Assembly (NCBI GenBank): GCA_964650355.1
Contig: CAZYTL010000001.1
Coordinates: 85,552-149,551 of the forward strand
Reading direction: 5' to 3'
DNA length: 64,000 bases
From: an uncultured Gammaproteobacteria bacterium
GTDB taxonomy: Bacteria; Patescibacteriota; Microgenomatia; CAYXHB01; CAZYTL01
Position 1 is the stretch's first letter. Every line of letters starts with the position of its first letter. Under the pieces are notes generated by a model. It had not been told where the DNA came from and did not search any database. It saw nothing but the letters and a program-made list of their open reading frames with translations. The translations under genes were made by a program, and so were the position numbers. This document shows positions 20,988 through 61,295 of this stretch, piece after piece.

Positions 20988-21014
20988 ATCCCTAGTTTAT
21001 CAAAAAACCTAACT

Positions 21015-21246
21015 CTTGACAGGAGTGAACAATTTGATACACTACTTGATAATTCTAATAAATAAAGGCTGTGAAGGAGTCGGTTGGGACTCCCGAGAAG
21101 CCGATCAGGCTATCCAACGAAGGAATGTCTGACCCGCAAGCCAAGCGTTATCAAACGGCAACAGTGTGTCGGCCATTACAGTTGGAGCACTGCACAATAA
21201 GGGTATCTTGTTTTGCAACTGTAACCGAGTCTGACTCGGTTTTTTT
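21015..21246 (+). ncRNA. Candidate small RNA or riboswitch-like leader: sigma70-like promoter to intrinsic terminator (~200 nt)
   Basis: TTGACA(21015)-N16-TACACT, then a structured region (ggagtc/gactcc, tccaac/gttgga, acagttg/caactgt), then ccgag-tctga-ctcgg + T7 at 21224-21246. Confidence 0.3.
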
Positions 21247-21394
21247 GTTTCCCAGAACAAGATACTGAACCAAGGTGGCACCGCCACTGATAGCTTTCAG
21301 CTTATAGCTGACAGCTTTTAGAAGGCCCTTGTAGATTTCCGAGATATTAACTCGGTGTTCTGCAAGGGCCTTTTTATTGACTCTTTAAACACTT

Positions 21395-22465
21395 ATGACC
21401 AAAGAAGTACGTCAAGTTTTAGGGAATTACCCTGAACCATATCTGACTTACGTCCGGGAAAGAAACGGGCGCGTGGGTCAACGGTTAGCAGATATATTAG
21501 GCGTAGAATACAACCCAGCCGGCATTACTGAAAACCACCATGGGGATACGTACTGGGTATTTTCTAAACCCGTGACAACGGGTGAAGCCAATGAGCTACG
21601 ATTACAGTCAGGTCAATATTTCGGTGCAGTAGTTGGGCACTCCGCTTTGGCAGACAAGGGTGTACTGCAACCATTAGTCAACGCCAATGCCTTTCACCCT
21701 GATTATTATCCTCATGGTCTAGCTGAAGAAATTGACGGAAGCGTAATTGATGGGCATCTTGTTTTTAGTAGAAAAGATGCTCAGCATAGCTATTATAGTT
21801 TAAGAACCCGAGGGCCAGTCAGACTGAAATATCCTCCCTCAAGTGACCATGATAATCAATGGATATTGAATACGGAAGACGATTTAACACTAGCCCTGAG
21901 TAATTTTTCTGGCGACCAACTTGAACAATCTGGATTAGTTCTCCAATTGGATCTCAGTCACTTACATCCCGTAACCAGAAACATAGGCCAATTAAGAATC
22001 GGTGATCACTATTTCAGTTTTATCGGCCGACAACAAAGTATTGTCCATGCAGGTAGACTAAAATATGGTGGAACCGAATTAACCATGTTTAGAGGTGGGT
22101 TAGAAGAGTTGCAGCAAACACACAGAAGAAAAATTAATGTCCATCCCCACCTGACAGAAGCCATCGAATCTGCTATAAAACTTCGACGTGCGTATCCTGG
22201 TTATGGTGTGCAAGCAACTCGTTTTTGTGTCGACACTGTAGACCAATTTGTAGTGGATCCTTCACTACGACCGGGAGGAGCCACCCCAGCTTCAGTATTG
22301 GCTATCGCTGAGTTACTGGGTAATCCCGGCGCAGATCATGTTAGTGCTGCTTCACGGTTGCATTACGATCCTGTCCCAGGGCGTGATTATCCGGGTGAAG
22401 TGTTTTTAAATCATCCAGATTTGACCATCACCGCTAGAGTGACTGGTATAAATAACGGCTTTTAA
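21395..22465 (+). CDS. Hypothetical protein (356 aa), GC-richer than neighbours
   Basis: Long ORF with no recognisable motif. Confidence 0.5.
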   Translation: MTKEVRQVLGNYPEPYLTYVRERNGRVGQRLADILGVEYNPAGITENHHGDTYWVFSKPVTTGEANELRLQSGQYFGAVVGHSALADKGVLQPLVNANAFHPDYYPHGLAEEIDGSVIDGHLVFSRKDAQHSYYSLRTRGPVRLKYPPSSDHDNQWILNTEDDLTLALSNFSGDQLEQSGLVLQLDLSHLHPVTRNIGQLRIGDHYFSFIGRQQSIVHAGRLKYGGTELTMFRGGLEELQQTHRRKINVHPHLTEAIESAIKLRRAYPGYGVQATRFCVDTVDQFVVDPSLRPGGATPASVLAIAELLGNPGADHVSAASRLHYDPVPGRDYPGEVFLNHPDLTITARVTGINNGF

Positions 22466-22620
22466 ATATGATTAACCTATATAAACTTTACCAACTGATT
22501 TGACTTTCCACTCGGGGATAATTAAATACTTGCGCGGCAGATGGGTCTTGGGCCGAGCCTCTCAGCAAGACAATTTCAAGATTCAATTTCGTTCGCCGCA
22601 TAGTTGTATTGTACAGATTT

Positions 22621-23706
22621 TTAATTAATCGACAACAGGAACTGTTTAAGAATTAAATAGTAATCATGCAAACTTTTAACACTCACCCACTCTTCATCGG
22701 TATGCAGACCTGAACCAATCGGACCAAAGGTGACACCGTCACAACCCACCTGATTATAGAGACGAATATCAGAACCACCATGTTTAACAATCAGCTTTGA
22801 AGGCTTTCCAGTAATCTTCCTGGTGGCTTGTCTGAGCTTCTTCACATACTGGTTTTGTTCATCAGTAAATTGGCAAGGTTCATTAACCACCACCTCGATC
22901 TCGGCCAAACCTTTCAGTATCTGTTTAATTCTGTTAAGAATTTCTTCTTTGTCAGCAGGAATATAGCGCACATCCACACCCAAAATACAATCTTCTGGAA
23001 CCTTATTAAAGGTTTGGTTGGTAGTCTGCAGCATTGCCAAATTAGCTGTTGTTTTCCAAGCCTCTTCCGAGGGCACCGGAAAATGTTGGTTAAATTTTTC
23101 CATTACCAGACCCATTTGGTGAATCGCATTCTCACCATTCCACGGATAAGCTCCGTGTGCAGCCTTACCTTTAGTTTTAATTTTCAGCCAAATAATTCCC
23201 TTGGCCTGATTATTCACACCGAAGTCTGTAGGTTCTCCTGCAATCACGAAATCGGCCTTAATACCTTTTTCTATCTGATATTTAGTGCCATGAAAACCGC
23301 CCACTTCTTCATCCGTTACCAACTGCAAACCCAGGGGGTAATTGACTTTGTCCGCCAACTCTTTAAATAACAAAACCATCACCGCCGCAGCGCCTTTCAT
23401 ATCTTGAGCTCCTCTACCATACAACTTGCCGTCTCTCAATTTTGGGCTGAACATCTTTTCTGGGCCGGGCACTACATCCAAATGAGCATTCAAAATTACG
23501 CGAAACCGCTGAGGAAAACTAACTTTTTTGCAAACCAATAAACTTGGTATCCCCTGGCTTTCAAACCTTTTTACGGAAAATTCTTTTAACTCTGTTTCAC
23601 ACACCTTCAGAACTTCGTGCATGGCACTTAGGTTATCCGTAACCGAATTAATTCCAATCAGTCTTTCAGCTAATTGTCTAGTCATAGTACCTGATACATA
23701 TTCCAT
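22621..23706 (-). CDS. M20 family metallopeptidase/amidohydrolase (ArgE/DapE-like)
   Basis: HLDVVP..., GRGAQDMKG and metal-binding E/H pattern of M20. Confidence 0.8.
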   Translation of the reverse strand: MEYVSGTMTRQLAERLIGINSVTDNLSAMHEVLKVCETELKEFSVKRFESQGIPSLLVCKKVSFPQRFRVILNAHLDVVPGPEKMFSPKLRDGKLYGRGAQDMKGAAAVMVLLFKELADKVNYPLGLQLVTDEEVGGFHGTKYQIEKGIKADFVIAGEPTDFGVNNQAKGIIWLKIKTKGKAAHGAYPWNGENAIHQMGLVMEKFNQHFPVPSEEAWKTTANLAMLQTTNQTFNKVPEDCILGVDVRYIPADKEEILNRIKQILKGLAEIEVVVNEPCQFTDEQNQYVKKLRQATRKITGKPSKLIVKHGGSDIRLYNQVGCDGVTFGPIGSGLHTDEEWVSVKSLHDYYLILKQFLLSIN

Positions 23707-23712
23707 TCAAAG

Positions 23713-25083
23713 TCAACCAAAGTTCTCCATATATTTTTCAGTATATATCGAAATACGCTCACGATACTTTCTTAAATGTTCATTATCTTTAGATCCGAAA
23801 AAAGCCACCGTGTTTAAAAAAGTAAATATATCTATCAAAAAATTGTCTAAATTTTCATCCATCTTATTTAAATCTATATAAAATTTTCCGTTTTTAATCT
23901 CTAAAATTTCATACTGCTGTGCCTTTAATAGCCATAAACTTGTCGAATATAAATATTCTTCTCGGAGTCCCATATTTTTATATCTTTGATATTTATATTC
24001 AAATAACAACCAATCCAACACTAGTAAATCTCTAGTTGCACCTTTATCTAACATCGAATTTTGTTCTAATAAATAAGACAAATAGAGGGAATTTATTTCA
24101 GCCCGGCCTTCCTCTATTAAAGTATAATACTTACCGAGATTAAAACTCGCATTATTCGGTTTTAAATAAGTGTGTCCGTATTCATGTAAAATTAGACTCA
24201 GTAAATACAACTTCTCCACATTGTTTTCAATATTAGTTTTTAACTTTTTATCTAATTCAAACCGAGGCCGAGCCTTCTTGACAAAAGGTACTAACTTCGC
24301 CACTTTGCTCTTCAAATTGTTAACCATAATCATTTTTATTGTCCCGTATTTCTTCGCTAAATTGACATTTTCAGGTCTTGACCAACCTTCCGTATCTAAT
24401 TTCGCCACTTCTCCACCCTCAGATACTACGTCTCCTATAAACAAGTGAACAGCCTTATTTTCATCGCTAATGGGTAAAAATGAAAGATTATTCCTCGTAA
24501 CTTCTGACAATGAATTCCAAATCTTATTATAAAATTGATATTGTAAATTTTTATACAAAAACACAGCTGTGTAAAATCTCTTCGTTCCCAATATTTTATC
24601 ATGATAACGTTCGATCGGCCCGACACTCATTAAAAAAAATGCCGATTCATCAAAACGAAGAAATTCTTTATCAGCCTTCTCCCACTCGTCAGTTAAGAAC
24701 GCTTTTTCTAAACTAGAATAAAACCTTAACCACCTTTGCGCATTAAAACTTTCTTTTATGTTGTTAACTTCGTTTTTAATATCATTAATCAATATCACAA
24801 TTTTTTTCAAATCAAATTTGTAATAATCGTGGTAAGGAATCTCTTTAACCCTACCCGCTTTAACCATCATTACAGAATACGCATTGGTTTGATACCCAGG
24901 ATTTTGGCGTAGGAAGTCTTTAACTTCTCCTTGATAAACTCCTCCCTTTTTACTCAACTGTTTTATAAACAGTCGATCTATCTCTTTAACCAACTCGATA
25001 TTCAACTTCACAAAATCAATATAAACTTTAGGGATCTTCTTAACTATATCATCGTGTGTCCGGAGATATTTTTTCATAACCAA
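23713..25083 (-). CDS. Hypothetical protein with HExxH (LILHEYGHTY), putative zinc metallopeptidase; strongly AT-rich
   Basis: HEYGH motif. Composition differs from adjacent genes. Confidence 0.45.
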   Translation of the reverse strand: MVMKKYLRTHDDIVKKIPKVYIDFVKLNIELVKEIDRLFIKQLSKKGGVYQGEVKDFLRQNPGYQTNAYSVMMVKAGRVKEIPYHDYYKFDLKKIVILINDIKNEVNNIKESFNAQRWLRFYSSLEKAFLTDEWEKADKEFLRFDESAFFLMSVGPIERYHDKILGTKRFYTAVFLYKNLQYQFYNKIWNSLSEVTRNNLSFLPISDENKAVHLFIGDVVSEGGEVAKLDTEGWSRPENVNLAKKYGTIKMIMVNNLKSKVAKLVPFVKKARPRFELDKKLKTNIENNVEKLYLLSLILHEYGHTYLKPNNASFNLGKYYTLIEEGRAEINSLYLSYLLEQNSMLDKGATRDLLVLDWLLFEYKYQRYKNMGLREEYLYSTSLWLLKAQQYEILEIKNGKFYIDLNKMDENLDNFLIDIFTFLNTVAFFGSKDNEHLRKYRERISIYTEKYMENFG

Positions 25084-25091
25084 TTACAATT

Positions 25092-26579
25092 TTAAGTCAC
25101 AATAAAAGCACCAAAACCGGCATTCGCCATCACTAAGGTCTTGAACCACGCTTCTGCCTGAGTACAACTATCTGTCGATTCTATTTCTTTAGCCATCTCT
25201 TTTATTTGATCAATAATATACTCTTGATGAGACATAGTCATTCCGTTCTCAGGAGTATATGGCTTATGCGCTCCCACTCGGGTAAAACCAAATCCATCCA
25301 AGGCGGTCGTCCTTAACTCCAAAATTCCGCCCGGTGCTAAAGGTCCTTCCGTCATCCCATTAGGAACAATTCTTAAGATATCAACCACAGGTTGGATTAA
25401 ACGGTTATTTCTAGCCTTTAATTCGTCTAATCTGCCGAACTCAATCCCATACCCAGAATCCCCGCTTACAGGTTTGTCGATAAACATCATCGCATCCTTT
25501 CCCTCCAAATCAACTTCCCCTGGGGTACAAAAGCTGGGTATCAACATTGATACCGGACCGTATTTTTCATAAACAGGCGCAAAAGTTCCTTTAGTCAACA
25601 TCGCCATTGCAACTGGATGTTCTGTCCACATATCAGGTGAATTCAGTATCCTCTTGAACATTGCTCTCTCTTCTTCATCCATCGAACTCATCACATAGCC
25701 TATTTCTCTAGGGGTGGTATTATTCAAAAAACTTTGTCCTTCAGTACTATCTGTTCTTAATCGCCCAACGAGGTCACGAATATCTATCGGATGTCTGTCG
25801 CTTCTCCCCCAAACCTGGTTAGTAGTTACCTTGTCCGGTAAAGCATGATGTATCTCTCCGGGGCGCTCGTGTACCTTGTAATCAACAACCGAAAAATCAG
25901 ACCACCCGGCAAATATTCTAGACCTCACCTCCCAATCAAAGCGACCTAAATCTACTTGGCCTCCAAAAGCTCCATTAATTAAAAAATTACGTGTAAAACC
26001 GTAATAACCCTTGAATGAGCCCTGGCCTTCCATCCCCATGAACATAAATTGCAACTCTTTCTTCTCTACGCGCCGGTGAACCTCCTCCCAATGATTGTCT
26101 CTATCATCTATTCCCACTGCCACAGGTAATCCATTTCTAACTTCAATCGGCACCGACACAAAGTCTACTACCGGAGCTAAACCTTCCTGAAAAGATTTTT
26201 CCTTAACTGCTAAAACGGTTTCCTCACTAAACAGTTTTGGGTCTTCAACTCCATACTTCTGAAGACTTGCTGCGAAAGTTAGGTTTACTCTGGCCACGGT
26301 ATCCGCATCATTTTCGTGAGCAGCTTCCTCCACCAACAAGTCAGTCGCCCGCCTTAAATACTGATAAATATACCCAGGCACCTCTACCGGGAAACTAACC
26401 ATCCTAGTCCCTGTGAAGGTACCTTGCCAATCTCGATGAGATGTACCTTGTCCTAACCCTGCCCTGCTATTAGGCCAGCCCCGGTAAGTTTCACCCAAGC
26501 TGTCGACCATCAACTTATTAGCCTGTCTCAGTTCACCAGCATTTAATTTACGCTCAGGAATAAAGTTTATGTTTCCCAT
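25092..26579 (-). CDS. Hypothetical protein (495 aa)
   Basis: Long ORF, co-directional and tightly spaced with the ligase-like gene. Confidence 0.5.
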   Translation of the reverse strand: MGNINFIPERKLNAGELRQANKLMVDSLGETYRGWPNSRAGLGQGTSHRDWQGTFTGTRMVSFPVEVPGYIYQYLRRATDLLVEEAAHENDADTVARVNLTFAASLQKYGVEDPKLFSEETVLAVKEKSFQEGLAPVVDFVSVPIEVRNGLPVAVGIDDRDNHWEEVHRRVEKKELQFMFMGMEGQGSFKGYYGFTRNFLINGAFGGQVDLGRFDWEVRSRIFAGWSDFSVVDYKVHERPGEIHHALPDKVTTNQVWGRSDRHPIDIRDLVGRLRTDSTEGQSFLNNTTPREIGYVMSSMDEEERAMFKRILNSPDMWTEHPVAMAMLTKGTFAPVYEKYGPVSMLIPSFCTPGEVDLEGKDAMMFIDKPVSGDSGYGIEFGRLDELKARNNRLIQPVVDILRIVPNGMTEGPLAPGGILELRTTALDGFGFTRVGAHKPYTPENGMTMSHQEYIIDQIKEMAKEIESTDSCTQAEAWFKTLVMANAGFGAFIVT

Positions 26580-26618
26580 AGTCAGAGAATTAAAAAATTA
26601 GAAGTAATCATATCACAA

Positions 26619-28217
26619 TTATCGCCGTACACCCAATCTTAGTTTTAAATCATCCATAAAAACTCTTCCTGCCTCCTTATTTGTCTCTCGTATCTTTTCT
26701 TCACCCGATCCTGGAACCGTGTACGCGTAATTTAAAGCTGCCCGACCTAAATTTCCTTTCAAATAAGTACCATTTCTATTATCAAAAAACCCACCCAGCC
26801 CATACTCACCCGGTAAGTTAGCTGGAGTTAATAATCGAGAAACCACATCAACGGCTCGCTCCCAATCTGCTGATCTCTCATCAGGACTTGTCCATTCTAT
26901 TAGATGTTCCCAACCCTCAGCTACCGTAACTTCTCCTCGATTTAACTTTAATACAGCCTGATCACCATATGTGATAGCCTGCACCCGATTCTCCACCCTT
27001 TTATCCATGCTTAGTGGTTGCAAAAATGCCGGCAATGGCTCTTCATCGCTTATAACATGCTTAGCTACTCTTAAAACAAATTCTCTCTGAATCACCGCTA
27101 AGGCTAAAGCCAGTTCAAAGTGATTGCCGTCGCCAGGCCCGGTCTCAAACGTCCCTGTCCTATACTTTGTCCTCGTATCTTTATGAGAACCATTTGGTCG
27201 TGATTCCTGAATTGACAACCCCATTCTTCGTTTAGCTCTCAAAACTGCCTCATCCTTGTCATCGTTCCTTCCTCCTGCTCTTTCAGGTAAAGGAATCAAA
27301 TTCTCCCGCATTAAAAGATCTCCCCGTCTCAAATGGGCAATTGCATCTACGGGAATATTTGCCTGAACGCCTCCCCTGGTGTACATTTCCCATCTTGAAA
27401 GCTCTCTGTTTGATACCCTACCAGTCAGCTGACCTTTCCAAAACGGCGCTGCCGTGGCAATCGCATTTACCAAAGTAGCCGGCAGAGTATTATAAACGTT
27501 TCCTACATAAAGCCCAAACTCAGCACTACCTCCAAACGGCATTAAATCAGTATGACACTGGATACTCGCCGCATCAAAATCAAGAGATTGCCCATTTAGA
27601 TTATATTTCATAATCCGTGCAATTAACGGGTGAGGAGAAATATTTCCCCAACCATCAGGCAGACGAGTGCCCACCATACCCAAAGGAAGTAACAAAGCTC
27701 CTTCAACTTCACATGCATCAACTAAGGGGCCTAATCCCTTCAACAAACTATCTTCTAATTCATCCCAAGTCCTGCCCGGCGGTGTGGGAATCTCGACCAC
27801 ATAATTCTGGGCTTCCGGACTGCCTCCTGCTCTATCCAATAACCATTCTCTACCGCCTCTTGTTACAGTAATCTGATCATCTTCAAATTTCACGATCCTG
27901 TCGCCACCATAAACATTAAACGGTTCACCGGTATTTGCATCGACCACCGCCAACTCATACTCTATTCCCATTCCCACCTCTCTACTATCAGGTGGTAATC
28001 TTAAACTCTTTGTCATCTTCGCGGTATGCAGACGGATAGGCAAAAGATCCGATTCTCCCACATCAAACATGGTGTCCTCCTCGCCCTCTTGTCTCAATCT
28101 ATAGGGAACTGGTTTAACGCTTAGGCTTTTTCCCCACCATACCCCTCCCTTTCTCAAGCCATCTGGTACCTGTACTGGTCTGAAACCTTCTATTTGATTA
28201 AAACCTGCCATAACCAA
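26619..28217 (-). CDS. Carboxylate-amine ligase, glutamate-cysteine ligase family 2 (YbdK/GCS2-like) with C-terminal extension
   Basis: GMGIEYELAVVDANTGEP resembles the YbdK N-terminal GIELE.Q.V motif. NYVVEIPT resembles the E(L/I)xT motif. IQCHTDL may be the H.H motif. Confidence 0.5.
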   Translation of the reverse strand: MVMAGFNQIEGFRPVQVPDGLRKGGVWWGKSLSVKPVPYRLRQEGEEDTMFDVGESDLLPIRLHTAKMTKSLRLPPDSREVGMGIEYELAVVDANTGEPFNVYGGDRIVKFEDDQITVTRGGREWLLDRAGGSPEAQNYVVEIPTPPGRTWDELEDSLLKGLGPLVDACEVEGALLLPLGMVGTRLPDGWGNISPHPLIARIMKYNLNGQSLDFDAASIQCHTDLMPFGGSAEFGLYVGNVYNTLPATLVNAIATAAPFWKGQLTGRVSNRELSRWEMYTRGGVQANIPVDAIAHLRRGDLLMRENLIPLPERAGGRNDDKDEAVLRAKRRMGLSIQESRPNGSHKDTRTKYRTGTFETGPGDGNHFELALALAVIQREFVLRVAKHVISDEEPLPAFLQPLSMDKRVENRVQAITYGDQAVLKLNRGEVTVAEGWEHLIEWTSPDERSADWERAVDVVSRLLTPANLPGEYGLGGFFDNRNGTYLKGNLGRAALNYAYTVPGSGEEKIRETNKEAGRVFMDDLKLRLGVRR

Positions 28218-28218
28218 T

Positions 28219-28290
28219 AAAAAAACCTCCCTTTTTTAGGAGGTTGGGAAAAATAAAATGGGACGAACTTAAGTCATCTGTTGCCCTAAC
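28219..28290 (-). promoter_or_regulatory. 5' leader attenuator: AACCUCC/GGAGGUU hairpin + U-run 10 nt before ATG, with upstream GGGAGGUUAGGG copy
   Basis: Minus strand: ggctgaGGGAGGTTaggg ... ttCCCAACCTCCtaaaaaaGGGAGGTTttttttta-ATG. Confidence 0.55.
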
Positions 28291-28380
28291 CTCCCTCAGC
28301 CGTTAATAATAACGACTTCTCGGGAGATAGTAATGACGACAACAGAAAAATTCATATTAGCACTATTAGATTTGAAGTAT

Positions 28381-28443
28381 ATTTTAACCTTTTGTAGCTG
28401 GCTGTCAAGCAGCACTTGACAAAATTGAATCTATTGATAATAT
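28381..28443. promoter_or_regulatory. Back-to-back divergent sigma70-like promoters
   Basis: Plus strand: TTGACA(28416-21)-N16-TAATAT(28438-43). Minus strand: TTGACA(28408-03)-N16-TAAAAT(28386-81). Confidence 0.55.
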
Positions 28444-28513
28444 AAGCTCTAATGTATAGAGAATTATCTCTCCTTAGCCTTCTTAGCTTGCTCCTCCTTG
28501 AGGAGTAGCTAAA

Positions 28514-28582
28514 CGTGGGGAGAGACGTATTCTTTTTAATTCACTTTTATCAATTCACCTCTCCCCAGGAGAGGTTTTTTTA
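28514..28582 (+). promoter_or_regulatory. 5' leader attenuator: ACCUCUCC/GGAGAGGU hairpin + U7, upstream GGGGAGAG copy
   Basis: gtGGGGAGAGacg (28517-24) ... cACCTCTCCccaGGAGAGGTttttttt (28557-81), then ATG at 28608. Confidence 0.55.
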
Positions 28583-28607
28583 TTGCTAGAAAATACATTA
28601 CTCGCTT

Positions 28608-29870
28608 ATGGCATTTAATACAGATGAGACCAAGAATCATTTGTTTTCCGGCTGGTGGAACGATGTGAGCAGAAAATTTCCCCAACCCGTACATCAAGAT
28701 CAATCAGCTCGGGAAATACTAACTACTGCTCGTCAAGAGGCGCGACCGGTAGCTTTATTAATGGTTGGTTGTTTAAATTGGAGACAGGCTGAGTACGATC
28801 CAGAAAATAATTGGATAACTGCGTTGGATTCCCAAAACAAAAGACTTCAAGCCACCAGGGATCGGATTGCCAGTTTAGTATCTGGGTTACATTCCTTTGG
28901 AATTCCCACTCAACAATTTTTAAGCTTATCTCGCTTAGAAGCTGAGACTCTTACCTTAGGTACTCTGGGAAAGAGTGTCGTTAACACTCCCGAAGAGATC
29001 AGGGCGGTTCAAGAAAAGAGCATCGATACTGCTCATCAACTTTTCGCTGAACGGGGAGTAGCCGTCACTTTTATAGATGATACACAAGTGTTTATGCGTG
29101 AACATCATGCTGATAGCATCTCGACACTGCAAGAAAGGCTCATAGGTGATGGGGACGGTATAAGTGGCTTTTATACCGGTATGTATGAAAGTTTAGTAAG
29201 ACATCTTCCTCCAGAAGCACTTAGTAAGACCATGGAACAGACAGATCAGACTCCAGCAGGCATTATCTGGCTAGATCTAATGTCACCTCTTGCCGGACCT
29301 CATAGAGCCGAACTTTTGGACATGGGAACACGGTATAGACCAGAAATGCCAATTATTACTCCTTCCGCCAACTCGGGTAAGTGGTGGACACCTAGGACTA
29401 GAGAAGCAATGTTTCCCGACAAACTAGATTTTATTGGCCGCAGGCTAGGAATATCTACCTATCCGGGAGCTTCTATTGGGGAAGAAGATCTTATTAGAAT
29501 AATTCCTAAATTAGGAAGAACCAAACTAGCAAGATTTTTCGATGTTCCAAGGGATCAAATCAACAGAGGGGATGCTATCGACAGAATCTTTGAAATATCA
29601 GGGGTCAGAAACTCAGCTCAAGAAGCAACGCCTGATGACGCTCCGTACACCGCAGAACCTGGCGACAATATCCTTGGTGTTTACAAAGAAGTTACCGGAA
29701 AAAGTACCAATCATACGATTAAAGATCTCCGTAGGGGTATTTGGGCAGAAATACCTGTTGATGGAAATCCAGAGAGGAAACTAATTAAGGATGGTCGGAT
29801 CCCTGTTCAGCCGGGAATGAGACTAAATACCGGTAGAAACCAATGGACTTTGATTAACTTTCCAGAATAA
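28608..29870 (+). CDS. Hypothetical protein (420 aa)
   Basis: Long ORF, first gene of the plus-strand operon. Confidence 0.5.
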   Translation: MAFNTDETKNHLFSGWWNDVSRKFPQPVHQDQSAREILTTARQEARPVALLMVGCLNWRQAEYDPENNWITALDSQNKRLQATRDRIASLVSGLHSFGIPTQQFLSLSRLEAETLTLGTLGKSVVNTPEEIRAVQEKSIDTAHQLFAERGVAVTFIDDTQVFMREHHADSISTLQERLIGDGDGISGFYTGMYESLVRHLPPEALSKTMEQTDQTPAGIIWLDLMSPLAGPHRAELLDMGTRYRPEMPIITPSANSGKWWTPRTREAMFPDKLDFIGRRLGISTYPGASIGEEDLIRIIPKLGRTKLARFFDVPRDQINRGDAIDRIFEISGVRNSAQEATPDDAPYTAEPGDNILGVYKEVTGKSTNHTIKDLRRGIWAEIPVDGNPERKLIKDGRIPVQPGMRLNTGRNQWTLINFPE

Positions 29871-29872
29871 AT

Positions 29873-30907
29873 ATGAATACCAAATTAATTACTGACATTA
29901 GAGATCTGCTAATCAAGATGAAACTTGAGGCTGTGGTCATTTATTCGGGGAGCTCTGACGATCGTTTTATGAAAGCCATCGCTGGAACGCCGTCATTATT
30001 AGAAGATTACGTTTTAATTACACCTAAAAACGCTTTCATTTCTGAGCCAAGATATATAACGGCTTATACCAGACGCAAAACCACAATCCCTATTTTGGAT
30101 GCTCCAAGCGAAAGACAACTTATAGAACCCTTGATCGCCGTTATCGGAGGTCACAAAAATATTGGGATTGCAGGGAGTTGTAGATATCAAGATATTGTCA
30201 GCCTTAAACCGAATCAAGTGACAGATATCACTTCCCAAATCAACAAATTGTTAAGACATAAATCCGACTCTTATATTAAAAAACTAAAAAAGTTAGCCAA
30301 AAGTACTTCTCGAATAATGGAATCTCTCGCGATTAAAACAGGCGATCAACAATCAAAAATTGCTCAAAAGCTACACACCGCAGCTATTGAGTTAAATGGT
30401 GATTTAGCTTTTCCGATCTGTATCACCAGTGGCCGTGATCTGGAAACTAGTACCAGTACTCCTGCTAGTGCAAAAGTAATAAGAAAAAACGACGCTGTTT
30501 GTATTGATATGGGGATAAAGAGCGACATTTATGCCACCGACTGCACCAGAATGTATTTTATTAACCATCCGAACAAGAAAGCCCTCTATTTAGGAATCGT
30601 TAAAGCTCATAACGAAATTATAGATAATTTCATCAGACCTGAGAGGACTTTCAGAGAAATTATTGATGAGTATCACAGAAAATTTAAAAACCACCGCCAT
30701 ATTAAAGAAATTAGAGAGTTAGGTATTGGACATGGTATTGGCTATGGGCTTCATGAATATCCTGAAATTGCAGAAGTAGATAAAGAACCCGTGGGTACAA
30801 ATATTGTCTTCACCCTAGAGCCGACTTTTATCACTACCATGGGAAGATTTAGAGTTGAAGACATGATCAGCGTTGATTCTCAGGGGGTAGTTAGCAAGTT
30901 AACTTAA
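29873..30907 (+). CDS. M24-family (creatinase/prolidase 'pita-bread' fold) metallopeptidase-like protein
   Basis: D...D (CIDMGIKSDIYATD), H (GHGIGYGLHEYP) and E (FTLEP) in M24 order. Paralog of 31919..32944. Confidence 0.65.
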   Translation: MNTKLITDIRDLLIKMKLEAVVIYSGSSDDRFMKAIAGTPSLLEDYVLITPKNAFISEPRYITAYTRRKTTIPILDAPSERQLIEPLIAVIGGHKNIGIAGSCRYQDIVSLKPNQVTDITSQINKLLRHKSDSYIKKLKKLAKSTSRIMESLAIKTGDQQSKIAQKLHTAAIELNGDLAFPICITSGRDLETSTSTPASAKVIRKNDAVCIDMGIKSDIYATDCTRMYFINHPNKKALYLGIVKAHNEIIDNFIRPERTFREIIDEYHRKFKNHRHIKEIRELGIGHGIGYGLHEYPEIAEVDKEPVGTNIVFTLEPTFITTMGRFRVEDMISVDSQGVVSKLT

Positions 30908-30912
30908 AATAT

Positions 30913-31869
30913 ATGACAATTACAACATCCGAAACGCGGCGATTTCGAGGGCTTCAATGGGAGTTAGCGCCCCCTATAGGGGATAACGGTGCTGGCAAAG
31001 TGAACACTTTACCAGAGAGTACTATCGGCTATCTTGCTGACCAAATTGATGCCAGATTTACATTACCGGGAAGTGCAAAAGGGGGATTACAAAATTTAGA
31101 CAGATTACGTTTACTTGGTGACCGTTTACCTGTAACAGTCGTACTTTGCCCCTTGTACTTAAAAGCAGGTGGATTTGTAACTAGAGAGTCAGGTTTAACC
31201 ATCGAAGACAGCCGAATAGGAATAAAATGGCGGGAACAAGAAAAGATGTTAGATTTACTTGGCGCGGTAACTGAGAAGGAAGGTCTGAAATTAGATCCCA
31301 GATTTACTTTTGCCGATAGAGGAGTAATTGTTCCTGAAAGCCCAAATGGGAAGCTTGCCTCTATATTAGCCTATCATCAGGATCTTTATCAAAGTAGACT
31401 TGACGGCTTATTCCCAGAAGGTTATCAACTAGACACCTTTACCAGTTTAACAGACCAATACCCGACTATCGCGGGTGATTACCCCCGTTTTATAATTCCG
31501 GATGGAATACAAGACCAGAAGTACGTCCAAAGTCAAGAACCTACTACAATAGCTGCTCTTCAAGACTTAGTAGACAGAGGACTTGTTGAATCTAATGATG
31601 TATTCAGGGTTAATCCAGCAGGTGAGAAAGAATTACTAAAACGCGTTAGAAACCGCCTAAGAGGTTTAGTAAAGTTTGGTGGATATAATCTGGCATTAGA
31701 ATTTGTCCGTCAATATCACACTTTCAACAATGCCCTTGTAGCATCTAATCCCGAACATGGTTTGCATACCTACTTTGAACGCGTTGATTATCTTCTGACT
31801 TCGATGAATACTTTGGCTCGGAGATCTCCTGCTGCCACTAATCCCCGAGTAGAAGTCCTCTGTAAATAA
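30913..31869 (+). CDS. Hypothetical protein (318 aa)
   Basis: ORF between the two M24 paralogs. Confidence 0.5.
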   Translation: MTITTSETRRFRGLQWELAPPIGDNGAGKVNTLPESTIGYLADQIDARFTLPGSAKGGLQNLDRLRLLGDRLPVTVVLCPLYLKAGGFVTRESGLTIEDSRIGIKWREQEKMLDLLGAVTEKEGLKLDPRFTFADRGVIVPESPNGKLASILAYHQDLYQSRLDGLFPEGYQLDTFTSLTDQYPTIAGDYPRFIIPDGIQDQKYVQSQEPTTIAALQDLVDRGLVESNDVFRVNPAGEKELLKRVRNRLRGLVKFGGYNLALEFVRQYHTFNNALVASNPEHGLHTYFERVDYLLTSMNTLARRSPAATNPRVEVLCK

Positions 31870-31918
31870 GTTGAGCAATCCATAGAATTCAAAAGGGGCG
31901 ACTAGAAAATAGATTAAA

Positions 31919-32944
31919 TTAGGTTATTTTTATAACTTCTTTCTTTGAATTGACCGCAATCATATCTTCAATTCTCATTCTGCCGTACGGGGTAATAAAA
32001 GTAGGCTCTAAAGTAAAAACTATATTCTTACCGATTTTCGAACTACCTGACTCCACATTTGGTTTTTCATGAAGTGCGAACCCTATCCCGTGTCCTAAAT
32101 CAGATTCCATCACTTCTTCAATCTGATGATATTTTTTTGAAAAACGACGATATCTTTGAATAGTTTCATCAAATCTTGTATTGCTTGTAAGGCTGTCAAT
32201 TACTTTATTGTGGATCCGAATTATTTGTTGATATAAGCTTTCAGCTTTTGGTTGATTAACAAAAAACATTCTTGTGAAATCAGTTGTATAAATTGAATAT
32301 TTAACTCCCATATCGATACAAATCATGTCTTTAGCTCCAATAATTTTATTACTCGCCAAACAACTGGTAGAAATTTTTATATCCTGGCCGCTGGTGATAC
32401 AAACAGGAAAAGCTAACTGTAAATTTCTGTTTATAACTTTCACCTGCAACCTTTTACTCAATTCCAATTGATTTATAGAAGAAACTACCTGGATAGACGT
32501 TAAAATCTTATTCGTAACTCTTGCATACCGTTTCAAGTTGTTAATATAATCATCACTTTTATATCTCACTACATCACTAGCACTAAGGTTTAAATCTATT
32601 GTTGATTTAGGTTCCAAACTAACTATATCTGGATATTTACAATTACCCACGATACCAATCAATTTGTTTGTCCCGATTATAGATTTAATACCATTGATCA
32701 CTTCATTTTCACCCTCTACTGAGACAATATTTAAAGTTGTCCTTTTTTTTAAATCAGCTACTAAATAACTCGCTTCTGAGATGCTTATACTATTAGCAGT
32801 AACCACCAGATAATTTTGCAATACTGAATAAGTACCACTAAGTGCTTTCATATACCTGTCGTCATATGCGTTAGCATAAACAACGATCGCGTCTAGTGTA
32901 TATTTTTTAAGCAGCCTTTGAAATTTTTGAATGTAATAATTCAT
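31919..32944 (-). CDS. M24-family metallopeptidase-like protein (paralog)
   Basis: CIDMGVKYSIYTTD, LGHGIGFALHEKP and FTLEPTFIT align with 29873..30907. Confidence 0.65.
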   Translation of the reverse strand: MNYYIQKFQRLLKKYTLDAIVVYANAYDDRYMKALSGTYSVLQNYLVVTANSISISEASYLVADLKKRTTLNIVSVEGENEVINGIKSIIGTNKLIGIVGNCKYPDIVSLEPKSTIDLNLSASDVVRYKSDDYINNLKRYARVTNKILTSIQVVSSINQLELSKRLQVKVINRNLQLAFPVCITSGQDIKISTSCLASNKIIGAKDMICIDMGVKYSIYTTDFTRMFFVNQPKAESLYQQIIRIHNKVIDSLTSNTRFDETIQRYRRFSKKYHQIEEVMESDLGHGIGFALHEKPNVESGSSKIGKNIVFTLEPTFITPYGRMRIEDMIAVNSKKEVIKIT

Positions 32945-33999
32945 AAGCCGTATTCACTAGCTTCATCAGCTATGGTTTCTAAAGATTTACCTAAATAAGG
33001 CACCTTTACTGCCCCGTCACTCAACAGTACAAGATTGTGAAAAGGTCTTAATATTGATGTTCTAGGTCGGGAACCACCATCAGGATAATCTAAATTATAC
33101 GCATAAAATTCCTTATGCCCAGGATTTAAAGGTCCCGGTATAGTATCTAACATGACTACGTCTCCCTTGTGTGTCAACTTTGTTCCAAACAAAGTATTAC
33201 TAAAGTCTTGGAGGTGATCGCCTGTTGCTGCAACTAATCCAAAATTTTCATCGACCACTCTCTGTATAATTTCTTCCCTTGTCGTGTACCCTCCCCAGGC
33301 ATATTGAAGCCATGAACCATCTGCTTCTACAGTAGTCCTTAGTAATCCTGCCCAGCGATTATCACCCTCAGCCATTATTCCTCTCAGCTGAGAATTCCAC
33401 CAATCCCAGTGATGATAAAAGCCATCAACTTGTACTTTGCTTTCTGGATGTGCAACAATATCCGTTAATTTTACAACCTTAGTAGACATAGGGATATCTC
33501 CATTAAAAGAACGCTGGGATAACCCGTGAGATAGTAAATTTGTGATAGTTTCAACGTTACGGCAGGTAGTTAAACGAATATGTTCTTTTAATTCTTCTGC
33601 TGATCTACCTCTATGGTCAAGATTTAATGGACTAAATAATTGCTCACTCATACCGACATCAACTAAAACTATTCCGAGATTAAACGGGATACCTAAGAGA
33701 TTTAAATCTAATAATCGACTGGGTAGTTCTTCATGTAATAATACATAACCACGCCTTAAACCATATCCAGAACTGTCCCACACCATTTCATTGTGAACGG
33801 TAGGTCTACGTACTCCATCTATTTGATAAGTTTCATAATTAGCACAAATAGGAGAAACTAATGGAGCTGGAATTCCAGACTCTGCGGCCTGGGTTAGTAT
33901 ACGCACCGCTTGATCAGGATATTCAAATCTCTCTTTGGAAAGAGACTCCTTTTGCCATCTTTGAATAACAGCTTCAATTTCTAGTTGTTTATTTGACAT
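32941..33999 (-). CDS. Hypothetical protein (352 aa)
   Basis: ORF with a 4-nt overlap onto the downstream M24 paralog. Confidence 0.5.
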   Translation of the reverse strand: MSNKQLEIEAVIQRWQKESLSKERFEYPDQAVRILTQAAESGIPAPLVSPICANYETYQIDGVRRPTVHNEMVWDSSGYGLRRGYVLLHEELPSRLLDLNLLGIPFNLGIVLVDVGMSEQLFSPLNLDHRGRSAEELKEHIRLTTCRNVETITNLLSHGLSQRSFNGDIPMSTKVVKLTDIVAHPESKVQVDGFYHHWDWWNSQLRGIMAEGDNRWAGLLRTTVEADGSWLQYAWGGYTTREEIIQRVVDENFGLVAATGDHLQDFSNTLFGTKLTHKGDVVMLDTIPGPLNPGHKEFYAYNLDYPDGGSRPRTSILRPFHNLVLLSDGAVKVPYLGKSLETIADEASEYGL

Positions 34000-34015
34000 A
34001 ATTAATGTTTATCCA

Positions 34016-34096
34016 CTAAAAAAACCTCCTTTTAGGAGGTTTGTGATTTAATAATTGTGGTTTAGTTTTATTTATCTTCTGCCACAAACCTCCGCT
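34016..34096 (-). promoter_or_regulatory. 5' leader attenuator: CACAAACCUCC/GGAGGUUU hairpin + U-run, with upstream GGAGGUUUGUG copy
   Basis: Minus strand: gcGGAGGTTTGTGgc (34081-95) ... tCACAAACCTCCtaaaaGGAGGTTTttttttag (34046-16), then ATG at 33999. Confidence 0.55.
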
Positions 34097-34261
34097 TCTT
34101 TAGTTAAAGAAGAAAAAGAAGGTCTGGAAAGCAAAAGAGTTTGATTGCATACTGATCTGTAGACTTATTATGGGTGATAATACTAGATTCGGAAACAGTG
34201 TCAAGTATTAAAATTGACTTAAACGGCACTTAGACAATTATGTTTTTGAAATCTTTACACT

Positions 34262-34891
34262 TCAATTAATAAAAGTAAACAAATCTGATTCAGGGAACCT
34301 GATTTTGCTGGCCTTAGGCTCTGATTCACGATACCCGATGGCCAATAACACCACGGTCTGCAGGTGAGTTGGCGACTTTAACCACTTGGCTGTCAGATGA
34401 GGATTAAATCCTTCCAGCGGACAGCAATCGATCTCCAATTCCATACAAGCAGCCACGGCAAACCCCAAGGCAATATATGTCTGCTTGGCAGCCCAAGCCA
34501 ATTTTGCTTGATGGTCGTGAAAATTGACCTGCATGGCCGCTTGAGTACCCTTTTCCAGAGCAAGCTTTTTAAATCGATCCAAAAAATGCTCGCCTGCCTG
34601 GAGATTCACGTACTGAGTTACTCGGTGATGAAGATCAGTTCTGGCGCAAAACACCAGCAAATATTGACAGTCGCTCACCTGGGATTGCAGCCACGACCAT
34701 AATTTAATTTGTTTCTGCAGGTTGCGGTTGGATACCACATAAACGTGATAGGGCTGAATCCCGAATGAGCTGGGAGCGTATTGAATTGCCTTCAAAATCT
34801 GCAGCAAATCTTTCTTGGTGACTGGCTTTTTCCGGTCGAACTTTTTAGTGGCGAATCTCCAGTCTAGTTGACTTAAAAACAATTTAGGCAT
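34262..34891 (-). CDS. Nitroreductase family protein
   Basis: LQILKAIQYAPSSFGIQPYHVYVV and a C-terminal G...R pattern of NAD(P)H nitroreductases. Confidence 0.7.
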   Translation of the reverse strand: MPKLFLSQLDWRFATKKFDRKKPVTKKDLLQILKAIQYAPSSFGIQPYHVYVVSNRNLQKQIKLWSWLQSQVSDCQYLLVFCARTDLHHRVTQYVNLQAGEHFLDRFKKLALEKGTQAAMQVNFHDHQAKLAWAAKQTYIALGFAVAACMELEIDCCPLEGFNPHLTAKWLKSPTHLQTVVLLAIGYRESEPKASKIRFPESDLFTFIN

Positions 34892-59608: not shown

Positions 59609-60811
59609 TCACTCTCTGCTTTGCTCCTCAGAGGTTTGATACATTCCTGGGTTAGTGGCTGTGAAGATTGCCAAAAGGGGTAGCAATCCACCTACCATTA
59701 AAGCTATGCTGAGCGATTTGTCCGCCAGCATCCCCATAAGCGGATTTAGAATTATCAGTGGGACCTTGTGGGCCATCGCCACAAAAGAAAGCATCGTGGC
59801 TCTCTCGTTTTCGGGAATATGCACATTTACGTGTGTGGCGATCAACTCCCGTCTGGTCAATCCCACGCCACCGGCTAACACTAGAAAACACGCAATAGTT
59901 AACAGGCTGGGATATAAAGCCGTAATCCCAAAACCCACTGCTGTTACAATTGCCGATACCCGTAAATACCGGTGGGTGGAACGAAACAATTTCTCAGAGA
60001 ACGGGAACAGCAAAGCTACCAGTACTTCTATGACCACCAGACCACCGTGTATCCAACCATAGTACTCTATACCTACCCCCTGGGACTTTAATAACGGCTG
60101 ATATAACCAGATTACATAATAAGCTCCTGTAGCTACCAGAATTGAGTCGATCGCCATCCATTTGATAGCTCTATTTTTCCACACGTATCTACCCCCTTTC
60201 TTGGCTATCGTTAGCCATCTTTTACTCTCACTTATCTGGTTTCTTCTCGGCGGTTCTTTAATACTCCAACAGGTGACTGCTGCCAAGAAGAAAGGTATAG
60301 ACGACAGATACATCGGAGCATTGATGCTGATGTGAGAGGCTATTATCCCGCCTATCGGGGCAGAGATCGCCATCGCCGCAAATTTGACTGCATAAGCCCT
60401 TCCGAAGATTTTTGTTCTTTTAGCTTCTAGGTTTGCCGACCTTAAGGTGTCGTAAAGGAGGGCGTTATCTGCACCAGAGGTCAGAGCCAAACCCATGGCA
60501 AACAAAAATTCTCCTAGCAAAAACACCTCAAATTTGGGAAAGCTTCCGTAAACCACGGTAGCCATACTTACCACCAAGGCTCCTAATGCTACCGAATGTT
60601 TCCGGCCAAAGTAGTCAGCCACTACTCCAGTGGGAACCTCCAGTACAAAAGCCCAAAACATGAACCAGGACTGTAGAAAGTAAGCGTGAAACAATCCCAG
60701 TCCTGCCCAGTCTGTGAATAACGGCGTGAGCACAGCCGCAAACAAACTGGCATTTTTAAAAAACACATACAGGTAGTATTTAATTAAAGTGTTTCTGAAA
60801 GTGGTATTCAT
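59609..60811 (-). CDS. MFS transporter (12 TM)
   Basis: Hydrophobicity pattern and GRK/ADKS loop motifs. Good SD (aaggagacagatcATG). Confidence 0.8.
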   Translation of the reverse strand: MNTTFRNTLIKYYLYVFFKNASLFAAVLTPLFTDWAGLGLFHAYFLQSWFMFWAFVLEVPTGVVADYFGRKHSVALGALVVSMATVVYGSFPKFEVFLLGEFLFAMGLALTSGADNALLYDTLRSANLEAKRTKIFGRAYAVKFAAMAISAPIGGIIASHISINAPMYLSSIPFFLAAVTCWSIKEPPRRNQISESKRWLTIAKKGGRYVWKNRAIKWMAIDSILVATGAYYVIWLYQPLLKSQGVGIEYYGWIHGGLVVIEVLVALLFPFSEKLFRSTHRYLRVSAIVTAVGFGITALYPSLLTIACFLVLAGGVGLTRRELIATHVNVHIPENERATMLSFVAMAHKVPLIILNPLMGMLADKSLSIALMVGGLLPLLAIFTATNPGMYQTSEEQSRE

Positions 60812-61021
60812 GATCTGTCTCCTTTCTTTAATGTTTGTTAAAGTGCCCGGCTAATAACGGATATTCCCAGATCCGTAGATCACCCGATCCTGAGCGAATC
60901 AGAATTAGTGATTTGTTTAGCCGGGTAAACCTCCGAGAAAAGGATTATTAAAAATTATTAACATTGCTTATCTGTGATAAATTTCTCTAGTTTAATTAGT
61001 TAATTTTCATGCTTTGCCATT

Positions 61022-61160
61022 AAAAAAGCCTCCTTTTCGGAGGCTGTGTCGGGAAAACAAATGTGATTGAATTATTAACTTCCACCCACGACTACAACCT
61101 CCATGGCCGGGTTAGCATCGACAGAGTCGATAGCTCCAGCGAAAAGCATGGAGGTTTTGG
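61022..61160 (-). promoter_or_regulatory. Leader attenuator (4th copy): AGCCUCC/GGAGGCU hairpin + U-run, upstream GGAGGUUGU copy, 6-codon uORF
   Basis: Minus strand: ggccatGGAGGTTGTag (61119-05) ... gaCACAGCCTCCgaaaaGGAGGCTtttttaATGGCAAAGCATGAAAATTAA. Promoter TTGACT-N17-TAAAAT at 61288-61260. Confidence 0.5.
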
Positions 61161-61295
61161 GATATTGTTGCCAGCAACGTTGTCTTTCCATAAACTACTT
61201 TAAGAGTCGAAATAGTTATTTATACAGCAGAAGCTATGCTCCAATCCGTATATTGGTATATTTTATCCCATAAGTTAAATTAAGTCAAAAAACCG

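Follow-up and report, generated by a model that had tools for sequence, protein, structure and literature searches.

In the window analysed here, a stretch of 64,000 nt of DNA from a CPR (Patescibacteria) bacterium, on a contig contained in SRR14802573, two genes on the minus strand follow a leader that we call leader A. The first encodes A1, a member of a small CPR-specific protein family, and the second an M24 metallopeptidase whose start overlaps the A1 stop by 4 nt (Table 1). Upstream of the leader lies a nitroreductase gene (ORF 34262..34891), and between this gene and A1 stands the terminator-like hairpin which first drew attention to the locus. The interval originally flagged, 34016..34096, proved to be half of the element, as segment 1, the leader ORF and the promoter-like sequence are all located upstream of 34096.

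Table 1. Features of leader A and the genes behind it, of sister leaders B and C, and leader peptides of orthologous loci (window coordinates)
Feature	Position	Strand	Remarks
Promoter-like element, leader A	34177..34204	-	TTGACA (34204..34199), 16-nt spacer, TATTAT (34182..34177); 11/12 consensus matches
Leader ORF, leader A	34100..34150	-	ATG CAA TCA AAC TCT TTT GCT TTC CAG ACC TTC TTT TTC TTC TTT AAC TAA
Segment 1	34118..34126	-	CAGACCUUC; inside the leader ORF, overlaps first codon of the Phe run
Five-Phe-codon run	34106..34120	-	UUC UUU UUC UUC UUU; further Phe codons at 34135..34133 and 34129..34127
Nested hairpin within the 1:2 helix	34095..34112	-	CUUCUUU-AACU-AAAGAAG; holds leader stop UAA 34102..34100
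Segment 2 (upstream copy)	34083..34093	-	GGAGGUUUGUG; starts 6 nt past the leader stop codon
Spacer (antiterminator loop)	34046..34082	-	37 nt, A/U-rich; no conserved sequence
Segment 3 (terminator 5' arm and segment 2 partner)	34035..34045	-	CACAAACCUCC
Intrinsic terminator	34018..34042	-	AAACCUCC-UAAAA-GGAGGUUU and U-run; terminator scan and folds
Mini-ORF	34002..34016	-	GTG GAT AAA CAT TAA; read from the sequence
A1 (first regulated gene)	32941..33999	-	352 aa; small CPR-specific family
M24 metallopeptidase (second regulated gene)	31919..32944	-	Xaa-Pro dipeptidase/aminopeptidase-like
Leader B	28224..28408	-	promoter 28408..28381, leader ORF 28355..28296, terminator 28245..28224
Leader C	28416..28582	+	promoter 28416..28443, leader ORF 28452..28508, terminator 28557..28575 and T-run
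Leader peptide, L002			MKSANTFFFACFFSLAKGRYGSGA
Leader peptide, L003			MDKAQQTLLANKSNKFFVFFTNIIKEVFY
Leader peptide, L005			MSLNQAFTFFFFNLQKREALT
Leader peptide, L006			MNLINQTFTFFFFTPQNKEVLT
Leader peptide, L007			MFRDKNNKDNKNIFSFSFFTPI
Leader peptide, L008			MKKIKLTNFFFFFFYLNLGGEIVLVNKL
Leader peptide, L011			MYARNTIFFFFFTTTQRGV
Leader peptide, L017			MVKLASQKFFFFTQEIGEVNRG
Leader peptide, L018			MKRIVSYVKSIVNISFTFFVGFGP
Leader peptide, L019			MTNAKVFTAFFFFSPS

As DNA, the minus strand carries the hairpin as AAACCTCC-TAAAA-GGAGGTTT, followed by seven T that end at 34018 (34024..34018, the last three stem bases included), and a terminator scan placed it at 34042..34022 with 9 pairs when the closing U-A is counted. 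The original prediction, that an exact 11-nt complement of the terminator's 5' arm lies upstream and can form a duplex longer than the terminator stem, is borne out: GGAGGTTTGTG at 34093..34083 (-) is the exact reverse complement of CACAAACCTCC at 34045..34035 (-), and the resulting 2:3 helix of 11 bp exceeds the 8-bp stem. A long-range exact inverted repeat of at least 11 nt was obtained in 23 of 3000 dinucleotide-preserving shuffles of leader A (about 1 in 130). Segment 2 has two alternative partners, segment 1 or segment 3 (the latter giving the antiterminator), and since the 2:3 and 3:4 helices share segment 3, antiterminator and terminator are mutually exclusive, as had been proposed. Segment 4 contains a GGAGG Shine–Dalgarno-like core at 34029..34025 (-). 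Some of the distances first given have to be corrected: the upstream copy and the hairpin arm are 37 nt and not 45 nt apart, the end of the T-run is 18 nt and not 25 nt from the A1 ATG at 33999, and the element does lie downstream of the nitroreductase stop, but the hairpin starts 220 nt and not 230 nt beyond it.

The promoter-like sequence ahead of leader A was joint best in a scan of 10.5 kb, the other top sites of which (11/12 and 10/12) precede leaders B and C. Leader A has a single ATG ORF, of 16 codons (product MQSNSFAFQTFFFFFN), in which seven codons specify Phe, five of them consecutively; an ATG ORF of 8–40 aa with at least five identical residues in a row appeared in one of 3000 shuffles. 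The Phe run begins in segment 1 and continues into the nested hairpin. The pairing of segment 1 with GGAGG makes it pyrimidine-rich, which by itself favours Phe, Leu and Ser codons. In the free RNA, both the MFE and the centroid folds contain the pairing of segment 1 with segment 2, as part of a longer helix with the nested hairpin, and leader A as a whole folds better than 200 of 200 shuffles (z = -4.4). No GGAGG-type Shine–Dalgarno sequence precedes the leader ATG at 34150, or that of most orthologues, whereas the downstream genes do have one, and initiation on the leader ORF is therefore an assumption; in some orthologues the leader ORF starts in an ATGA overlap with the stop of the upstream gene.

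We suggest that the element is very likely a ribosome-mediated (leader-peptide) transcription attenuator of the classical four-segment trp/phe type, sensing charged tRNA-Phe, and that it probably switches on A1 and the M24 peptidase when charged tRNA-Phe is low. Considering that the putative sensor is a Phe-codon ORF overlapping the very segment that pairs with the upstream copy, we argue for attenuation and against a riboswitch. Transcription, predicted to start near 34170, would be followed by translation of the 16-codon leader ORF. With ample Phe-tRNA(Phe), the ribosome would pass the Phe codons to the UAA at 34102..34100 and its footprint would mask segment 2, and if no ribosome engaged, segment 1 would pair with segment 2; in either case segment 3 would be free to pair with segment 4, and the polymerase would terminate at the U-run, which ends 18 nt short of the gene. 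A shortage of Phe-tRNA(Phe) would stall the ribosome on FFFFF, where it would cover segment 1; segment 2 could then pair with segment 3 as the 11-bp antiterminator ahead of the synthesis of segment 4. The polymerase would read through into the A1 and M24 genes, and the GGAGG core of segment 4 would stay unpaired and available as a ribosome-binding site. We infer from these elements that the promoter is in use, that ribosomes translate the leader ORF, that the organism couples transcription to translation, and that regulation runs in the direction described.

To mimic a ribosome, the leaders were folded with a footprint of 30 nt kept unpaired. For free leader A the full-length MFE structure contained the 1:2 helix and the terminator; a footprint over the Phe run gave the 2:3 antiterminator with the terminator absent, and a footprint at the stop codon gave the terminator. 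In silico, leader A thus has a geometry in which segment 2 would be freed by a stall and masked by a ribosome that has reached the stop codon. Leaders B and C and five of the orthologous leaders retained the terminator in the full-length MFE despite the stalled footprint, so that the switch there rests on a kinetic, co-transcriptional argument, and for this reason we also folded transcripts cut before segment 4, mimicking the co-transcriptional situation. Under a stalled footprint all 13 leaders then formed the 2:3 helix. When the footprint was moved to the stop codon, segment 3 of the cut transcripts was fully unpaired in seven of the 13 and had 2–7 alternative pairs, in folds of low stability, in four; it was still paired with segment 2 in L016 (4 pairs) and L008 (all 6).

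DNA fetched around A1 orthologues of 40–50% identity yielded 11 further leaders with Phe runs. At every orthologous locus we find a short ORF that opens with ATG and carries a Phe run (TFFFACFF, KFFVFF, FTFFFF, FFFFF, FFFFFF, FSFSFF, KFFFF, FTFFVGF or AFFFF), a G-rich segment 2, an A/T-rich spacer (17–43 nt, not alignable) and a hairpin with T6–8 adjoining the start codon. The hairpin and its 6–8 U are kept in all 12 leaders, and the leader stop codon lies within or adjoining segment 2 in every one of the 12 (offsets -33 to +6 nt). The stems themselves differ by lineage (CCTCC/GGAGG, CCCCGC/GCGGGG, GCTCCC/GGGAGC): segment 3 occurs with six distinct cores (ACCTCC, CCCCGC and GCTCCC among them), and segments 2 and 4 both track these. 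Counted on loop-anchored cores, which were used because MAFFT lost the register of segment 2, standard pairs make up 66 of 66 positions for 2:3 and 66 of 66 for 3:4 in 11 distinct leaders. In L005, L006 and L011 the Phe codons are unpaired with segment 2 and the Phe run is nevertheless kept, so that the constraint acts on the codons and not only on the RNA. The upstream neighbours of the element are of at least six kinds, among them DUF5660, an unknown 520-aa protein, M28-like, M42, a tRNA and rplT, and the element therefore belongs to the downstream gene and not to the nitroreductase. The claim that the hairpin is not merely the nitroreductase terminator is upheld by this persistence with the downstream gene in other genomes, and by the 11/12 promoter match between the nitroreductase stop and the hairpin.

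The 352-aa family is linked to tRNA-Phe by three independent lines of evidence: the Phe leaders, a Phe-specifier T-box with a tRNA-Phe gene, and placement in a pheST operon. In the distant lineage L021/L022 a T-box takes the place of the leader peptide (79.5 bits, E = 9e-17), the order being rplT, T-box, tRNA gene and a distant A1-family gene. The 3' side of its specifier loop reads GAA-UUC-G, and is therefore a Phe specifier; the tRNA gene, which ends 4 nt before the ATG, was identified by ARAGORN as tRNA-Phe(GAA). In L019/L020 the order is rplT, a Phe leader with attenuator (MTNAKVFTAFFFFSPS), an A1-like gene, pheS (fused to an AlaX-like domain) and pheT. The E. coli pheM attenuator occupies this same place, between rplT and pheS-pheT.

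Within the window, the architecture is shared by the leaders at 28219..28582, as was first proposed. Leader B, whose ORF product (MNFSVVVITISREVVIING) is Val/Ile-rich, precedes operon 28217..22621, which begins with a GCS2-like gene (carboxylate-amine ligase) and ends with an M20 peptidase gene; leader C, with nine Leu in its product (MYRELSLLSLLSLLLLEE), precedes operon 28608..31869, which holds a second M24. The three leaders stand in one cluster with the same geometry and different codon bias (Phe; Val/Ile; Leu), and B and C fold like leader A (z = -4.0 and -5.5, respectively), which suggests the same working with Val/Ile and Leu codons. The leader ORF of leader C would begin 1–2 nt past the predicted transcription start and would thus be nearly leaderless. 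A homologue search with the first genes behind leaders B and C returned the query itself as the only match. Aligned for a common aptamer, the three leaders have no sequence conserved beyond the GGAGG/CCTCC segments and the T-run, and the aptamer-like element expected between the upstream copy and the hairpin did not materialize, the spacer being A/T-rich, unconserved and without a match to any Rfam family.

Rfam at gathering score gave no T-box, riboswitch or other family match in the whole window, and at E <= 10 only sub-threshold noise in 27500..34700. A T-box in the window was rejected since RF00230 matched neither at gathering score nor at E <= 10 (27500..34700) and no T-box motif was present; the L021 T-box, found by the same search, served as positive control. 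A T-box-like string at about 21270 had no Rfam match. A metabolite riboswitch was likewise rejected, given the lack of an Rfam match and the spacer and 1:2 domain that are unconserved among the three leaders and among orthologues. Membership of the Rfam family RF01859 (Phe_leader) was rejected at 25.4 bits against a gathering score of 55 (E = 0.69), with the match confined to 34015..34070.

Other readings of the element have to be weighed against attenuation of transcription. All 12 leaders carry a G+C-rich hairpin of 8–9 bp followed by 6–8 U, a canonical intrinsic terminator, and this makes it improbable that the output is mainly translational, with the 3:4 hairpin hiding the GGAGG of segment 4, a stalled ribosome freeing it via 2:3 and the U-run of minor importance. 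Such an output would suit the many orthologues ordered GGAGG, T7, ATG, which is ideal Shine–Dalgarno spacing, and also the mini-ORF of the window, which runs from 8 nt past the segment-4 GGAGG to 2 nt short of the A1 ATG; in L006, L016 and L017, however, a second GGAGG past the U-run serves the real start, so segment 4 is not always a Shine–Dalgarno sequence. Translational and transcriptional outputs are compatible and may act jointly. Speculatively, the mini-ORF might provide translational coupling. Mini-ORFs of like kind are also found in leader C and L003.

A very improbable reading, to our mind, is that a metabolite, a tRNA or an RNA-binding protein stabilizes the 1:2 helix (or the spacer) and that the short ORF is incidental. 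A single ligand does not explain a codon bias towards Phe in one leader, Val/Ile in another and Leu in the third; moreover, the three window leaders have a common structure with almost no common sequence in the 1:2 domain, the spacer is unconserved, no Rfam family matches even at E <= 10, and orthologues often lack the 1:2 helix yet retain their Phe codons in frame downstream of an ATG. These points outweigh the resemblance of the 1:2 helix and nested hairpin to a small structured domain, the leader ATG without a Shine–Dalgarno sequence and the presence of a distant A1 homologue under a tRNA-binding T-box. Scarcely credible is a plain intrinsic terminator of the nitroreductase operon with the upstream complement and ORF present by chance: since the stretch from the nitroreductase stop (34262) to the hairpin shows no further terminator, the hairpin may well also end the nitroreductase transcript, but a near-consensus promoter lies between the two, with no room for one downstream because the gap from T-run to ATG is only 18 nt, the A1-family genes that follow the element have upstream neighbours of six or more kinds, segments 2 and 3 co-vary, and the chance expectations are those given above (about 1 in 3000 for the FFFFF ORF, about 1 in 130 for the 11-nt complement).

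The E. coli pheST attenuator, with its pheM leader peptide, is a classical attenuator of an aminoacyl-tRNA synthetase operon. Leader A resembles it in the short Phe-rich leader ORF, the alternative antiterminator and terminator helices, the U-run and the sensing of charged tRNA-Phe via stalling that we propose, and the CPR element of L019/L020 occupies the same slot, after rplT and before pheS-pheT. Unlike pheM-pheST, to which it has no sequence similarity, leader A has A1 and an M24 peptidase and not PheRS as its target, a leader ORF without a Shine–Dalgarno sequence, a terminator with a Shine–Dalgarno-like 3' arm and a U-run that nearly abuts the start codon, and a CPR bacterium as host. Attenuation of pheST has been mentioned together with classical attenuators before aminoacyl-tRNA synthetase genes in Streptomyces and Gammaproteobacteria (PMC1262725). 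In the pheL-pheA attenuator a run of Phe codons stands near the end of the peptide, pyrimidine-rich codons pair with G-rich segments, and the RNA forms pause, antiterminator and terminator structures (PMC3082878). The late Phe run, the pyrimidine/G-rich pairing and the alternative structures of leader A are like those of this gammaproteobacterial system (RF01859), whereas the genes regulated in the window are not biosynthetic and the RF01859 score is sub-threshold and limited to the terminator region; since the threshold is missed, we regard leader A as an independent member of the mechanistic class and not of the Phe_leader sequence family. A Phe-specifier T-box (RF00230) shares with leader A the signal (tRNA-Phe charging), the choice between terminator and antiterminator and, in L021/L022, the same protein family, but its Stem I and T-box sequence bind the tRNA directly, with no leader peptide involved, and the window leader is of about 150 nt. 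Leaders C and B are like the leu and ilv attenuators in having Leu or Val/Ile runs ahead of a terminator, and differ from them in their targets, which are uncharacterized proteins, a GCS2-like ligase and M24/M20 peptidases and not branched-chain biosynthesis.

About 20 A1 homologues were found among 5.8 billion proteins, and all the named ones are from CPR/Patescibacteria (Roizmanbacteria, Chisholmbacteria, Portnoybacteria); an HMM search of 1.84 billion representative proteins gave ten clusters at E < 1e-30. The pairing of A1 with M24 is kept in L002/L004, L010 and L018, and the partners are always of exopeptidase type, M24 in the window, L002, L010 and L018, and M28-like or M42 with M20 elsewhere; in some loci an AlaX-like gene is a partner. 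A1 has no Pfam or NCBIfam match, and none of 17 family members matches Pfam even at E <= 10. The AlphaFold model of A1 (pLDDT 90.9, pTM 0.91) has CDPS structures as its best Foldseek matches in the PDB (probability 0.99–1.0, E about 2e-3; TM 0.41–0.56 normalized to target), followed by TyrRS catalytic domains, with TM-scores of 0.3–0.56 across CDPS and TyrRS matches. The predicted fold may thus be like that of CDPS and class Ic aminoacyl-tRNA synthetases, and the genomic context of A1 is tied to tRNA-Phe and PheRS. Unlike CDPS, A1 is some 100 aa longer, and its profile shows no similarity to those of the CDPS AlbC, Rv2275 and YvmC (hhalign probability 0.09), so that any likeness is at fold level only. 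Assignment of A1 to the CDPS family finds no support in the absent Pfam match and the hhalign value of 0.09; a comparison of the A1 profile with PDB sequences gave nothing meaningful. In A1 the first sheet strand is followed by an invariant Cys-Ala-Asn-Tyr-Glu, at most a hypothetical counterpart of the CDPS catalytic Ser, as no residue of A1 could be equated with the catalytic Ser, Tyr and Glu of CDPS. Additionally, A1 has a weak N-terminal match to a 420-aa protein of the cluster (BLAST E = 0.07; hmmsearch E = 0.015 in a 10-sequence database), for which single-sequence AlphaFold gave a pLDDT of 42; paralogy of A1 with other uncharacterized cluster proteins is conceivable but unproven.

CPR bacteria are mostly uncultivated, and as a consequence their gene regulation is almost unexplored; they are thought to lack most amino-acid biosynthesis. 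No paper connecting CPR/Patescibacteria with leader-peptide attenuation or with CDPS-like proteins came up in full-text literature searches. The attenuation mechanism is known, and its occurrence in this group and its targets appear to be new, the unexpected parts being the regulon and the tRNA-Phe-linked protein family. The window and its relatives suggest that CPR bacteria use textbook leader-peptide attenuation, and T-boxes too in some lineages. The amino acid of a leader peptide would provide a free functional label for the genes behind it, placing hypothetical proteins in a response to limitation for Phe, Leu or Val/Ile, and so offers a testable entry to the way in which CPR bacteria cope with amino-acid shortage and to a possible new family of tRNA-linked enzymes.

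For the regulated genes we infer a starvation-induced amino-acid supply module. A wider reading, which we put forward tentatively and consider rather doubtful, is that the three operons (Phe, Leu and Val/Ile) form a CPR-specific, starvation-induced supply system, that A1 is a new enzyme of tRNA-Phe or Phe-tRNA(Phe), and that attenuation is general in CPR bacteria; literature searches found no published report of such a supply system or of general attenuation in CPR. If true, A1, with its CDPS/TyrRS-like fold and invariant Cys, would work with M24, M28/M42 and M20 peptidases to restore charged tRNA-Phe, possibly by salvage of Phe from peptides or cyclodipeptides, or else by quality control together with the AlaX-like domain that one lineage carries as a fusion to PheS, and leader-peptide attenuation would be a general CPR regulatory mode that includes thrS.

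Another synthetase gene serves as a control for the attenuation logic: in L005/L012/L013/L016, thrS is directly preceded by a TTTT/TTT leader peptide (MKLKSIFNTTTTASA or MKLNNILNCTTTASA) and a terminator. At the corresponding position in the T-box lineage stands a 590-aa gene, with no Pfam match on record, that has a T-box whose hairpin loop contains ACC; by size and synteny this gene is probably thrS.

Attenuators with a Thr leader peptide (MKLKSIFNTTTTASA or MKLNNILNCTTTASA, followed by a CCCTCC/GGAGGG hairpin and a run of six or seven T residues) were found directly 5' of the gene for threonyl-tRNA synthetase in other CPR genomes, within four of the loci fetched around relatives of A1, the first gene behind the Phe leader A of the window. 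Directly 3' of A1, the same four loci (L005, L012, L013 and L016) carry a free-standing 240-aa gene for an AlaX-like domain (the C-terminal part of PF01411), and this same domain is fused at the N-terminus of the PheRS alpha subunit encoded at L019 5375..7123.

Moreover, L021 (4623..5001) carries a T-box whose specifier is UUC (Phe), followed by a tRNA-Phe(GAA) gene and then by an A1-family gene, an arrangement that is the same in L022; 4 nt separate the end of the tRNA gene from the ATG of the protein gene, and the T-box appears to control both genes jointly. Another T-box in L021, a short one at 1323..1508 (loop CUUACCA, with ACC inside), sits 5' of a 590-aa gene.

We also identified a second attenuator family with Leu/Ile-rich leader peptides (MEKALLLTKSLFLLFNQRNLVGGKV, MYDAKKLTQLFLLSLIG, MTKTNLITISLNSVLFIEDQVNGGMV, MTQKALITLILINLFKEGGLL and MLHPKLLITNLINLLNRGGLVS). 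In L003, L011, L015 and L017 the genes behind it encode uncharacterised proteins of 426-564 aa, which are related to one another and have no detectable relation to the proteins of the window, and in L016 an ORF of 66 aa lies downstream, together with an M28-like gene. Further, at L015 7106..8110 the M28-like gene upstream provides the Phe-rich 'leader peptide' as its C-terminal tail (...KKTFNQFFKPFKGGKT*), with segment 2 (the strand shared between the competing pairings) and the terminator coming after it; the sensing ORF is here merged with a real gene. The public A1 gene call of L015 begins too early, at 8001, within this region.

Within the window, a possible fourth leader has the same build as the Phe, Val/Ile and Leu leaders A-C and a fold z of -3.7. 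Its ORF is MERQRCWQQYPKTSMLFAGAIDSVDANPAMEVVVVGGS, or the shorter MEVVVVGGS, and its geometry is unlike that of leaders A-C, because the four Val codons come just 3' of segment 2. The next gene encodes an MFS transporter. A further leader of about 370 nt (21000..21395, plus strand) was observed ahead of the DUF3182 gene (21395..22465, plus strand), and it has no Rfam match at E <= 1. The DUF3182 gene adjoins the cluster, and the gene that opens the Val/Ile operon behind leader B (26619..28217, minus strand) has a precomputed match to PF04107 (GCS2, glutamate-cysteine ligase family 2), its YbdK-type NCBIfam matches being weak; thus peptidases appear to be combined with a ligase-like gene in the cluster 21395..33999.

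Positions of leader, attenuator and mini-ORF features (window positions unless a locus is named)
Feature	Position	Strand	Remark
Promoter-like TTGACA-16-TACACT	within 21000..21395	plus	DUF3182 leader
Hairpin + T7	21223..21241	plus	DUF3182 leader
T-box-like string CCAAGGTGGCACCGCC	near 21270	plus	DUF3182 leader
Second, long hairpin + T-run	21322..21375	plus	DUF3182 leader
Promoter-like TTGACT-17-TAAAAT	within 61285..61020	minus	possible fourth leader
Segment 1 AACCUCCAUG pairing with segment 2 CCAUGGAGGUU	within 61285..61020	minus	possible fourth leader
Terminator AGCCUCC-GAAAA-GGAGGCU-U6	61045..61027	minus	possible fourth leader
MFS transporter gene	60811..59609		~210 nt downstream of possible fourth leader
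Leu/Ile attenuator	L003 198..215
Leu/Ile attenuator	L011 10214..10194	minus
Leu/Ile attenuator	L015 5478..5496
Leu/Ile attenuator	L016 3683..3702
Leu/Ile attenuator	L017 3470..3449	minus
Thr attenuator	L005 ~7640..7700
Thr attenuator	L012 7694..7709
Thr attenuator	L013 4224..4239
Thr attenuator	L016 7904..7921
Mini-ORF	34016..34002	minus	GTG GAT AAA CAT TAA, then TT, then ATG
Mini-ORF	28583..28618	plus
Mini-ORF	L003 ~1928..1951

Additionally, mini-ORFs begin 7-8 nt 3' of the GGAGG in the 3' arm of the terminator and end either at the main start codon or just short of it; they might serve translational coupling after readthrough. L003 (CAZVYS010000021.1) bears the public title 'uncultured Pseudomonadales bacterium'. 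The contig contains the CPR-specific A1 family and the same attenuators, with the low G+C and the GGAGG-rich style of CPR loci, and the bin label may be wrong.
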